Sequence record: OM386654.1
Length of the DNA: 64,000 bases
Direction: 5' to 3' (one strand)
From: Escherichia phage vB_EcoM_ESCO9
Shown: positions 46,690-48,024 of the stretch, in pieces
How the letters are laid out: the number at the start of each line of letters is the position of its first letter
How positions within the stretch are numbered: the stretch's first letter is position 1
Program-made: the position numbers and the translations under genes
The notes under the pieces: generated by a model
What the model saw: the letters and a program-made list of their open reading frames with translations, nothing else
Database searches by the model: none
What the model was told of the DNA's origin: nothing

Positions 46690-46722
46690 ATTACTCTAAC
46701 ATATTATTAGCCCCTTTGTCAA
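46690..46722 (-). promoter_or_regulatory. sigma70-like promoter for a tRNA transcription unit (-35 TTGACA, 17 nt, -10 TTAGAG)
   Basis: Minus-strand TTGACA at 46717-46722; -10 at 46694-46699; tRNA-Gly 5' end about 13 nt downstream. Confidence 0.4.
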
Positions 46723-46736
46723 GAGGCTTTTAATAT

Positions 46737-47066
46737 TTATTTTAAAATAGTAGATGCACCACGTCTGTTTAGATATGCAACCGTAAAGCTCAAATCACCT
46801 ATTTCTTCAGGTTCCCACTGACCTTCTAAGCCATAACAAGAACAATGATATGCGTGTACTTCATAAAACAAAGATGTTTTCATATCATAGAAATAAACGT
46901 GAGATTCGCCTTCATAATATGCACAATCATAAGTGGCAGAAAGAATTACAATGTTATCCTTATCTAACTCTACTTCATAATATCTTTCAACATCTTCAAT
47001 ATCATCAAAACCATCGAAAACATTGATATTAAAATATTTCTCTAACTCTTTTTCTGTCACATACAC
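46737..47066 (-). CDS. hypothetical protein (109 aa) embedded in the tRNA array
   Basis: ORF track; Tyr/Cys/His-rich (HAYHCSCYG). Confidence 0.45.
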   Translation of the reverse strand: MYVTEKELEKYFNINVFDGFDDIEDVERYYEVELDKDNIVILSATYDCAYYEGESHVYFYDMKTSLFYEVHAYHCSCYGLEGQWEPEEIGDLSFTVAYLNRRGASTILK

Positions 47067-47083
47067 CCCCTTTAGAGTTAAAT

Positions 47084-47158
47084 TGGTGCTCCCACAAGGA
47101 CTCGAACCTTGATAAGTTGCTTACAAGGCAACCGTAATAGCCGTTATACGATAGGAGC
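47084..47158 (-). tRNA. tRNA-Thr (anticodon TGT)
   Basis: Anticodon arm GUUGC-CUUGUAA-GCAAC; T-arm CAAGG-UUCGAGU-CCUUG; CCA encoded. Confidence 0.65.
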
Positions 47159-47159
47159 A

Positions 47160-47237
47160 AAATATTTGCTTGGTAGGATTTGATACCTACAATTCTAGAA
47201 AATTCTAGAGGTTTCTATTAACTCTACAAGCACTATT
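47160..47237 (-). tRNA. tRNA-like probable pseudogene
   Basis: T-arm GUAGG-UAUCAAAU-CCUAC has an 8-nt loop; acceptor closes with a G.A mismatch; only a 6-nt-loop hairpin where the anticodon arm should be; no CCA. Confidence 0.25.
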
Positions 47238-47322
47238 TGGCGATGGATCAAGGATTTGAACCTTGCTAGAACTTTCGTTCACGGATTAACAGTCCGTCGC
47301 CCAACCACTAGGCCAATCCATC
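47238..47322 (-). tRNA. tRNA-Asn-like (anticodon GTT) with an unusually long variable arm
   Basis: 85 nt; perfect acceptor; 4-bp D-stem; anticodon arm ACGGA-CUGUUAA-UCCGU; 15-nt variable region with GAAC-GAAA-GUUC hairpin; T-arm CAAGG-UUCAAAU-CCUUG; CCA encoded. Confidence 0.5.
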
Positions 47323-47329
47323 TTTAATT

Positions 47330-47416
47330 TGGTGCAGGTAGTTGGACTCGAACCAACGAAGCCCCGAAGGGCAGGAGATTTACAGTCTCCAGCAATTGCC
47401 GCTATGCGATACCTAC
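47330..47416 (-). tRNA. tRNA-Tyr (anticodon GTA), long variable arm
   Basis: 87 nt; anticodon arm GGAGA-CUGUAAA-UCUCC; variable hairpin UGCCC-UUCG-GGGC; T-arm GUUGG-UUCGAGU-CCAAC; CCA encoded. Confidence 0.7.
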
Positions 47417-47421
47417 GTGTT

Positions 47422-47496
47422 TGGTACATCGTGAAGGATTCGAACCTTCGACCTTGGAGTTAAAAGCCCTTGCTCTACCAACTAAGCTAACGATGT
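47422..47496 (-). tRNA. tRNA-like with ambiguous anticodon arm (UUA in standard register, UUU/Lys if shifted by one)
   Basis: Good acceptor, D-arm GCUU-AGUUGGUA-GAGC, T-arm GAAGG-UUCGAAU-CCUUC and CCA; anticodon region AAGGGCUUUUAACUCCAAGG forms only a 3-bp stem in either register. Confidence 0.45.
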
Positions 47497-47624
47497 ATAA
47501 ATTATCTTTAAAATAGCCAGTGTTTGCGGCACTGACTATGAGGTATCGGTAAAATGGCTGCCACCATCTGCCGAAAGTTTACTCTGCTAAAGTAAGTAGC
47601 CTCAACGCTACATTAAAGATAACT

Positions 47625-47710
47625 TGGCGGTAGATGTAGGACTTGAACCTACACGCCGTTTCCGACGACAGTTTAGCAAACTGTTGTGGCTACCATTTCA
47701 CCAATCTACC
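47625..47710 (-). tRNA. tRNA-Ser (anticodon GCT), long variable arm
   Basis: 86 nt; D-stem GUG/CAC; anticodon arm ACAGU-UUGCUAA-ACUGU; variable hairpin; T-arm GUAGG-UUCAAGU-CCUAC; CCA encoded. Confidence 0.7.
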
Positions 47711-47718
47711 GTTTTTAA

Positions 47719-47871
47719 TTATTCAAAACAACCGGAATCTTTTTGTTCTGCTTTTACCATACGAATATTTTTACCATCTTCAGATTGTTGAAGATTAGAA
47801 TACTCATAAACAACTTTATTATTTACAATCTTAACTCCGGTAACAACCTGTCCAATAGTTTTATAATTCAT
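47719..47871 (-). CDS. small hypothetical protein (50 aa) embedded in the tRNA array
   Basis: ATG at 47871 preceded by AGGAG; the track's longer ORF (to 47919) would overlap tRNA-Ser(TGA). Confidence 0.4.
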   Translation of the reverse strand: MNYKTIGQVVTGVKIVNNKVVYEYSNLQQSEDGKNIRMVKAEQKDSGCFE

Positions 47872-47889
47872 AAAGCTCCTAGTTGAATT

Positions 47890-47979
47890 TGGAGGAAGAT
47901 AATGGAGTCGAACCATCACCGTATCACTACAATGGGCCAGGGTTCAAACCTGGTTGCGCACCGCTGCGCCCTACCTTCC
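47890..47979 (-). tRNA. tRNA-Ser (anticodon TGA), long variable arm
   Basis: 90 nt; anticodon arm CCAGG-UUUGAAC-CCUGG; T-arm GAUGG-UUCGACU-CCAUU; acceptor GGAAGGU/AUCUUCC with one G.U; CCA encoded. Confidence 0.65.
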
Positions 47980-47989
47980 CGTTATCATA

Positions 47990-48024
47990 CTTTAAATCTA
48001 ACATAAAACTATCTTGCTTGTCAA
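47990..48024 (-). promoter_or_regulatory. sigma70-like promoter for a tRNA transcription unit (-35 TTGACA, 17 nt, -10 TTAGAT)
   Basis: Minus-strand TTGACA at 48019-48024; -10 at 47996-48001; tRNA-Ser 5' end about 17 nt downstream. Confidence 0.4.

Follow-up and report, generated by a model that had tools for sequence, protein, structure and literature searches.

Host σ70 promoters of the extended −10 type predicted before tRNA, metabolic and structural genes of Escherichia phage vB_EcoM_ESCO9

In and around a cluster of transfer RNA (tRNA) genes, the genome of Escherichia phage vB_EcoM_ESCO9 (sequence record OM386654.1) repeats a pair of short elements, a TTGACA or TTGACT hexamer followed at nearly constant distance by a second, A+T-rich hexamer. 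What do these pairs do, and are they of one kind or of several? We addressed this in the whole stretch of 64,000 nucleotides (nt) analysed, hereafter the window. Judged from the DNA sequence, the repeated motif very probably represents promoters for the host RNA polymerase carrying σ70, of the extended −10 type. An earlier note on this DNA had likewise read the sites as σ70-dependent, and consensus elements, position, orientation, enrichment and conservation in relatives all agree with that part of it. The interval it had singled out, 46690–48024, extends from the −10 element of one site (P46722) to the −35 element of another (P48024) and contains just these two.

All TTGACA and TTGACT hexamers on both strands were listed and then placed against the gene map; each site is named after the first T of its −35 hexamer. 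Twelve sites (10 on the minus and 2 on the plus strand) are non-coding, co-oriented with genes and have a TAnnnT hexamer 17–18 nt further on. The earlier note had counted at least eight on the minus strand, and every motif that it named is present in the sequence, including the TTGACA and TTGACT sites at 6495 and 60719 on the plus strand.
47995–48024, minus strand: P48024, TTGACA-N18-(TGt)TAGATT; tRNA-Ser(UGA) begins at 47979, 16 nt past the end of the −10
46693–46722, minus strand: P46722, TTGACA-N18-(TGt)TAGAGT; tRNA-Gly(UCC) begins at 46681, 12 nt past the end of the −10
48136–48164, minus strand: P48164, TTGACA-N17-(TGt)TATAGT; a tRNA called by Rfam (48046–48124) begins 12 nt past the end of the −10
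48802–48831, minus strand: P48831, TTGACA-N18-(TGc)TAAGAT; upstream of a small open reading frame (ORF) at 48506–48772 (phi92 gp110) and of the tRNA cluster
49224–49252, minus strand: P49252, TTGACT-N17-(TGa)TAAGAT; overlaps the 3′ end of the nicotinamide phosphoribosyltransferase gene
51011–51039, minus strand: P51039, TTGACA-N17-TAAGAT; upstream of the nicotinamide phosphoribosyltransferase gene
51983–52011, minus strand: P52011, TTGACT-N17-TAGAGT; precedes the ribose-phosphate pyrophosphokinase gene and is itself preceded by 25 nt of 96% A+T
41543–41572, minus strand: P41572, TTGACA-N18-(TGt)TAAAGT; between the genes for the large terminase and the portal
39850–39878, minus strand: P39878, TTGACA-N17-TAGACT; directly after the portal gene
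29352–29381, minus strand: P29381, TTGACA-N18-(TGa)TAAAAT; after the terminator of the tape-measure gene, upstream of a tail-fibre gene
6495–6524, plus strand: P6495, TTGACA-N18-(TGt)TATTAT (TTGACA...TGTGTTATTAT)
60719–60748, plus strand: P60719, TTGACT-N18-(TGt)TAATAT (TTGACT...TGTGTTAATAT); upstream of a small ORF at 60790–61002 and of the exonuclease gene

The abundance of the pattern was compared with the expectation from 200 dinucleotide-preserving shuffles. The stringent form, TTGACW-N14/15-TGN-TANNNT, occurs 13 times, as against 0.38 ± 0.61 in the shuffles, and the form that does not require TG, TTGACW-N17/18-TANNNT, occurs 22 times as against 5.7 ± 2.3. Twelve of these 22 matches fall within the approximately 9% of the window that is non-coding, all of them co-oriented with the neighbouring genes. 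Enrichment over the shuffles and placement in non-coding DNA together establish the motif as real, its frequency lying far outside chance. Copies of TTGACW by itself are fewer in the window than in the shuffles (79 versus 113 ± 10); such depletion alongside enrichment of the full pattern is consistent with selection against stray −35 boxes.

When the 12 sites are aligned on TAnnnT, T at −12, A at −11 and T at −7 are invariant. A TG dinucleotide occupies −15/−14 in nine sites, is shifted by one base in two and absent in one; −17 and −13 are mostly T. The −35 hexamer is TTGACA in nine sites and TTGACT in three, the spacer is 17 nt in five and 18 nt in seven, and the 25 nt upstream of the −35 average approximately 76% A+T compared with 62% for the window. 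Between the −10 and the following gene or tRNA the earlier note had put 10–40 nt; measured from the last base of the −10 to the 5′ end of that gene or tRNA, the range is slightly wider, approximately 11–65 nt.

This alignment also settles the register of the −10 element. The earlier note had mixed two registers, reading TTAGAG or TTAGAT at 17 nt for some sites and TAGAGT or TAAGAT for others; the former are displaced by one base and have neither of the essential bases A−11 and T−7. A shift by one base gives TGt-TAGAGT or TGt-TAGATT at 18 nt, that is, TTGACA-N15-TGn-TAGAGT/TAGATT. What had been written ATG-TTAGAG is thus A-TGt-TAGAGT, a classical extended −10 with an 18-base-pair (bp) spacer, and TGTG-TTATTAT on the plus strand is TG-TGt-TATTAT, the same extended −10 element as in the minus-strand sites. 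Six sites carry exactly the hexamers that had been listed; all ten on the minus strand fit if the hexamer is written TAnnnT.

With T−12, A−11 and T−7, the TG, a −35 at 16–18 bp and non-coding, co-oriented placement, the set has the features by which extended −10 promoters of σ70 are recognized. The set also agrees with the rule of Kropinski 2013, by which a promoter lies upstream of a gene and matches TTGACA(N15–18)TATAAT in 10 or more of 12 positions: six sites between 40 and 54 kb have 10–11 matches and a further two have 9. Read in this way, the predicted promoter consists of a −35 TTGACA or TTGACT, a 17–18 bp spacer, TG at −15/−14 and TAnnnT, usually with an A+T-rich stretch upstream. From established σ70 biochemistry, region 4 of σ70 would contact the −35, region 3.0 the TG, and region 2 would capture A−11 and T−7, so that the expected start of transcription is approximately 7 nt downstream of the −10. 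The −10 variants that contain G (TAGAGT, TAAGAT) are tolerated variation at the weakly read positions −10 to −8 and not a separate class.

P48831, P48164, P48024 and P46722, arranged in series, would feed polycistronic tRNA precursors, with leaders of approximately 5–10 nt before the first tRNA that RNase P would remove. The first terminator-like hairpin downstream of these promoters is at 45044–45068; with no recognizable terminators between them, their outputs should add along the cluster. The other sites would head genes for nicotinamide adenine dinucleotide (NAD) salvage, portal and head, and tail fibres, and two operons of the replication module.

The motif is retained in relatives. The 4 kb around the tRNA promoters are 97–99% identical to Escherichia phage phi92 and other members of Justusliebigvirus (Stephanstirmvirinae), the window minus strand corresponding to the phi92 plus strand. 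P48024 is invariant in phi92 and three relatives from IMG/VR. Across the genus, P46722, P48024 and P48164 have unchanged cores; substitutions are confined to the leaders and to the flanks upstream, and a single base is inserted in the spacer of one relative. A distant blastn search with the P46722 region returned genus members alone, and since these are 96–100% identical, footprinting within the genus has little power. A search of IMG/VR with the exact pattern at the tRNA-Gly 5′ end gave three near-identical contigs and no others.

More divergent loci are informative. Portal-protein relatives in IMG/VR (73–100% identity) supplied ten further loci; at 73–89% portal identity, the promoter upstream of the portal gene keeps TTGACA/T, TG and TAnnnT (TAAAGT, TATATT, TACAAT) while spacer and flanks diverge. 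The promoter downstream of the portal gene is also kept, as TAGACT or TAGAAT. For the tRNA/NAD region, a protein search with the nicotinamide phosphoribosyltransferase found near-identical loci and one at 40% identity, and Klebsiella phage KP2025, from a phage collection, was used for comparison in its place. KP2025 has approximately 76% nucleotide identity in flanking genes and carries four sites in this region, TTGACA-N18-TGa-TAAGAT, -TGt-TAGAGT, -TGt-TATAGT and -TGc-TAAGAT; the motif of P48831 recurs identically at the equivalent relative place. As KP2025 shares the architecture, including the purine-rich −10 cores, it is a trait of the lineage.

Several points weigh against reading the sites as ordinary host promoters. 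Our literature search on Stephanstirmvirinae and Vequintavirinae yielded no data on start sites, RNA polymerase binding or expression, and the BME3 phage paper does not discuss promoters. The 18-bp spacer exceeds the σ70 optimum by one, and three sites are without a correctly placed TG. For approximately 36 kb of structural genes just three consensus-grade promoters and two weaker candidates were found, so late transcription may need something further. Hairpins overlapping several sites could mean an additional or a different role. Two sites in the window were rated as weaker candidates.
2616–2644, plus strand: weaker candidate, TTTACA-N17-(TGg)TACAGT; precedes the DNA polymerase gene and follows a terminator
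44565–44594, minus strand: weaker candidate, TTGCTT-N18-(TGa)TATGAT; follows a terminator in the region of the lysis genes

The alternative that survives best, and which we regard as possible although not probable, is that two promoter architectures exist, divided by genome module. According to this proposal an early block of small genes uses TTGACA-N16/17-TAnnnT, mostly without TG and each followed by a conserved 5′ stem-loop, and the tRNA, NAD, replication and structural modules use the N17/18 spacer plus TGn seen in this window. The remaining 84 kb of the genome were read for this comparison from phage muut (loci L005 and L006), which has the same orientation as the window and is 98.9–100% identical to it in three regions compared. 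Its early small-gene block (approximately 52–74 kb, minus strand) contains some twenty TTGACA-N16/17-TAnnnT sites, mostly without TG, and about ten of these are followed approximately 8 nt further on by a conserved GC hairpin, CATAGRGCGG..loop..CCGCC (L005 41400–43450 and L006 1700–3100, both minus strand and outside the window). An 18-nt spacer is found in 7 of 12 sites in the window versus 0 of 18 elsewhere (p = 0.0004), and TG in 9 of 12 versus 4 of 18 (p = 0.008). The independently published promoter list of phage rV5 points the same way, with 16-nt spacers confined to its early region (5 of 13 versus 0 of 20, p = 0.005). On the other side, the early block was read in muut and not in the window, the TG difference in rV5 has the same direction but is not significant (p = 0.16), and the filter for sites used crude gene calling.

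Extended −10 promoters are resistant to AsiA of phage T4. Since TGn promoters are less dependent on the −35, a phage factor that blocks σ region 4 could silence the early set and spare the TGn set. That the phage runs on host σ70 alone, and that such a putative factor switches off the early, −35-dependent cassettes as the TGn set continues, is rather unlikely; if true, it would be an AsiA-like logic without middle or late promoters of the T4 type. Among the Pfam and PHROG matches listed for 85 early muut proteins there is no anti-σ (AsiA-like) or σ-like domain, a weak negative given by scans that have low sensitivity for small, fast-evolving proteins.

A second alternative, suggested by the hairpins, is that promoter and hairpin units are mainly recombination cassettes that shuffle modules, like the promoter-early stem-loop (PeSL) cassettes of T4-type phages, transcription being secondary. 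PeSLs are near-consensus TTGACA-N17-TATAAT promoters combined with stem-loops in plastic regions (PMC2839356, PMC4122927). In the window, hairpins overlap or follow six promoters, and the tRNA region of relatives differs by insertions, for example of an HNH endonuclease gene. P39878 is embedded in an 18-bp hairpin (39826–39870, minus strand) that lies around the −10 and is followed by a T-run (−19.5 kcal/mol, z = −4.1). The −10 of P51039 is bracketed by an 8-bp inverted repeat, GGGAGTAT..ATACTCCC (50995–51030, minus strand; z = −2.8), and the −35 of P46722 is divided equally between stem and loop of an 8-bp hairpin (46700–46730, minus strand; z = −3.8) directly after the stop codon of the upstream ORF. 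Leader hairpins of 11 bp and 9 bp are present 5′ at P29381 and P60719, respectively. The z scores of these five hairpins range from −2.4 to −4.5; that of the P41572 leader hairpin is −0.3, its sole support being covariation in relatives.

The near-consensus promoter adjoining a stem-loop is thus present in the window, but the repeated, sequence-conserved unit of a PeSL is seen only in the muut early block, where the likeness is clearest. The hairpins of the window are individually different, and some span the promoter itself, terminator-like around the −10; sharing no sequence, they offer no homology for recombination. Covariation between relatives points instead to a role at the RNA level: the repeats at P39878 and P51039 have changed in sequence and kept their pairing, KP2025 having a repeat of other sequence at the place equivalent to that of P51039, which favours such a role over a protein operator. 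We therefore consider recombination cassettes improbable. The hairpins that overlap promoters may be terminator–promoter composites; at P39878, read-through transcripts of the portal gene could terminate in the hairpin, and transcripts begun inside it would lack the 5′ arm.

The earlier note had further divided the sites by strand into two σ70 classes differing in timing or strength, TTAGAK or TAAGAT on the minus strand and TGTG-TTAWTAT on the plus strand. Within the window a G inside the −10 does occur in 9 of 10 minus-strand but 0 of 2 plus-strand sites (Fisher p = 0.045). However, this comparison was made post hoc and depends on two sites on the plus strand; with the remaining 84 kb from muut added the difference disappears (p = 0.37), so the split is left unsupported. 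Plus-strand promoters in muut read TAGTAT, TAAACT, TAGACT, TATAGT and TAAAAT; two TGTTAGTAT motifs stand on the plus strand of the divergent region; and the plus-strand sites of the window share the −35, N18 and TGt with those on the minus strand (TTGACW-N15-TGt-TAnnnT), differing only at the weakly recognized positions −10 to −8. Strand classes are highly improbable.

Chance matches in an A+T-rich genome have a negligible probability: although a generic scanner returned 52 loosely promoter-like sites within 14 kb where 43 ± 7 would be expected, a count near expectation that makes loose matches uninformative, the shuffle results for the stringent TG pattern refute chance, all 12 high-confidence sites are non-coding and correctly oriented, and their elements are conserved across genera.

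Host σ70 promoters of the extended −10 type can be compared with known systems. As in E. coli extended −10 promoters (TRTGn), TG at −15/−14 precedes TAnnnT, often with T at −17 and a purine at −16, and a consensus-like −35 and an A+T-rich upstream region also have counterparts there. Unlike most host extended −10 promoters, which have a poor −35, the phage sites join a perfect −35 to the TG, often with an 18-bp spacer, and their −10 cores are purine-rich (TAAGAT, TAGAGT) in place of TATAAT. Phage T4 resembles this phage in being a large virulent myovirus that has its tRNA genes in a cluster and its early and late genes in modular blocks; it differs in that the structural genes here have σ70-type promoters with a −35 box. 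Neither the T4 late motif TATAAATA nor a MotA-box motif is found in co-oriented intergenic DNA of the window. A phage RNA polymerase or σ factor is likewise absent from the annotated records examined and from the PHROG matches of ten window proteins.

The closest counterpart is rV5, whose genome paper (Kropinski et al. 2013, PMC3606486, Table S4) predicts 33 σ70 promoters, 11 of them extended −10. They are spread over all modules, include TAAGAT boxes (P075, P220) and a tRNA promoter, and imply host polymerase throughout; the module equivalent to the one considered here carries PtRNA, P074, P075 and P081 (PMC3606486). Both phages thus have TTGACA-N16–18-TAnnnT in all modules, with sites before the tRNA cluster, and a third of those in rV5 are extended −10. 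They differ in that rV5 belongs to Vequintavirinae, not Stephanstirmvirinae, and mostly has N17, whereas N18 with TGt predominates here. The motif TGGTAaAAT proposed as "late" in rV5 has one intergenic occurrence in the window, TGGTACAGT at 2636 on the plus strand. As predicted from their elements, the sites form a set of ordinary E. coli σ70 promoters before tRNA, metabolic and structural genes, of a kind already predicted in rV5.

Gene content was assigned through the phi92 record and PHROG matches. A replication block with primase/helicase, DNA polymerase and methyltransferase genes occupies 1–9.1 kb on the plus strand. The minus-strand block from 9.1 to 52 kb holds tail-fibre, baseplate, tail, head, portal (39910–41478), large terminase (41576–43660) and lysis genes and the tRNA cluster, and ends with the genes for nicotinamide phosphoribosyltransferase (49245–50978) and then ribose-phosphate pyrophosphokinase (51050–51943). 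A block of DNA metabolism begins on the plus strand at 52353. Ribosome-binding sites are the sole regulatory signals annotated in the GenBank records examined, and the phi92 record annotates them, but not promoters, in the tRNA/NAD region. At P6495, the ATG of an ORF at 6535–6933 follows just 11 nt past the −10, without a Shine–Dalgarno sequence, so the mRNA would be nearly leaderless. Further full matches to TTGACW-N-TGn-TAnnnT lie within genes at 58367 (plus strand), 18131 and 23862 (both minus strand); two of the three are 100–200 nt upstream of the next gene start and may be internal promoters.

The divergent region between the pyrophosphokinase operon and the plus-strand genes, 410 bp long, contains other promoter-like sequences. 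Two tandem copies of TGTTAGTAT, extended −10-like and without a good −35, are located at 52058–52088 on the plus strand, where TATG/TAGT repeats abound; the first gene on that strand begins approximately 270 nt further downstream. A variant element is found on the other strand.
52193–52221, minus strand: variant promoter-like element in the divergent intergenic region, TTGACA-N17-(TGc)TACCCT, then conserved CGAGCGnAGCGAG
As a conserved unit this element reads TTGACW-N14-aTGcTACCCTaa, followed by CGAGCG(A/C/AT)AGCGAG 10–16 nt further on, and was located at 52100–52221 in the window (minus strand), at L006 14327, at L005 29919 and at a further locus, L023 5334 (all plus strand). There are three copies per genome (one in the window and two in muut), one of them antisense to the early block. 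KP2025 has the element at the equivalent position, approximately 230 nt upstream of the pyrophosphokinase operon. Its fold is not significant (z = −0.9). An Rfam match to GA-cis at 52149–52264 (E = 0.66) was taken as chance.

The tRNA cluster served by four of the predicted promoters contains RNAs in addition to the annotated ones.
45460–48498, minus strand: tRNA cluster, 15 ARAGORN calls and one extra Rfam call; predicted promoters P48831, P48164, P48024 and P46722
The extra tRNA (48046–48124, minus strand) scores 38.6 bits against a gathering threshold of 29, was missed by ARAGORN and is unannotated in phi92. It has a D-arm cut to 4 nt, the anticodon loop CUUCUAA (UCU, Arg) and a variable insert of 20 nt. 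Relatives carry it nearly unchanged, and its own predicted promoter, P48164, would give a leader of approximately 5 nt. The discriminators of three of the tRNA promoters (cattat, taaagt, aatatt) are nearly pure A+T. Host stable-RNA promoters have GC-rich discriminators, and the difference suggests that phage tRNA synthesis escapes stringent control.

Between tRNA-Ser(GCU) and tRNA-Lys, inside 46690–48024, lies an unannotated spacer RNA of 128 nt (47497–47624, minus strand). Its predicted fold, at −42.9 kcal/mol (z = −5.1), is a closed multi-helix junction. No match to it was found in Rfam at E ≤ 1. By blastn it is present in 184 phage records, unannotated throughout, from Phapecoctavirus (phAPEC8-like), rV5-like phages, a Pseudomonas phage and T5-like siphoviruses, and in annotated records it is located among tRNA genes. 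In an alignment of 12 sequences, 98.9% of the cells of its 38 pairs are paired, compared with 38–55% once the partners are slid. Compensatory changes occur in five pairs, and double-change cells number 19 versus 7.1 ± 2.1 in shuffles. No exact match to its conserved core was found in 185,579 bacterial and archaeal species genomes. The spacer RNA is a candidate stable phage RNA. A second spacer, 79 nt between tRNA-Asn and tRNA-Thr (47159–47237, minus strand), folds with a closing stem and a hairpin that resembles a T-arm (z = −2.7). As no tRNA is called at this place by ARAGORN or Rfam, it may be a decayed tRNA. Across 45.0–52.5 kb, tRNAs alone exceed the Rfam thresholds.

The finding adds an ordinary member to a known kind, similar promoters having been predicted for rV5 in 2013. 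What is gained is a checked promoter map, with a corrected −10 register and the boundaries of transcription units, for a phage group represented in therapy collections. The tRNA transcription units hold an unannotated, covarying RNA that is also present in T5-like phages, and the module-specific difference in spacer and TG may reflect temporal control.

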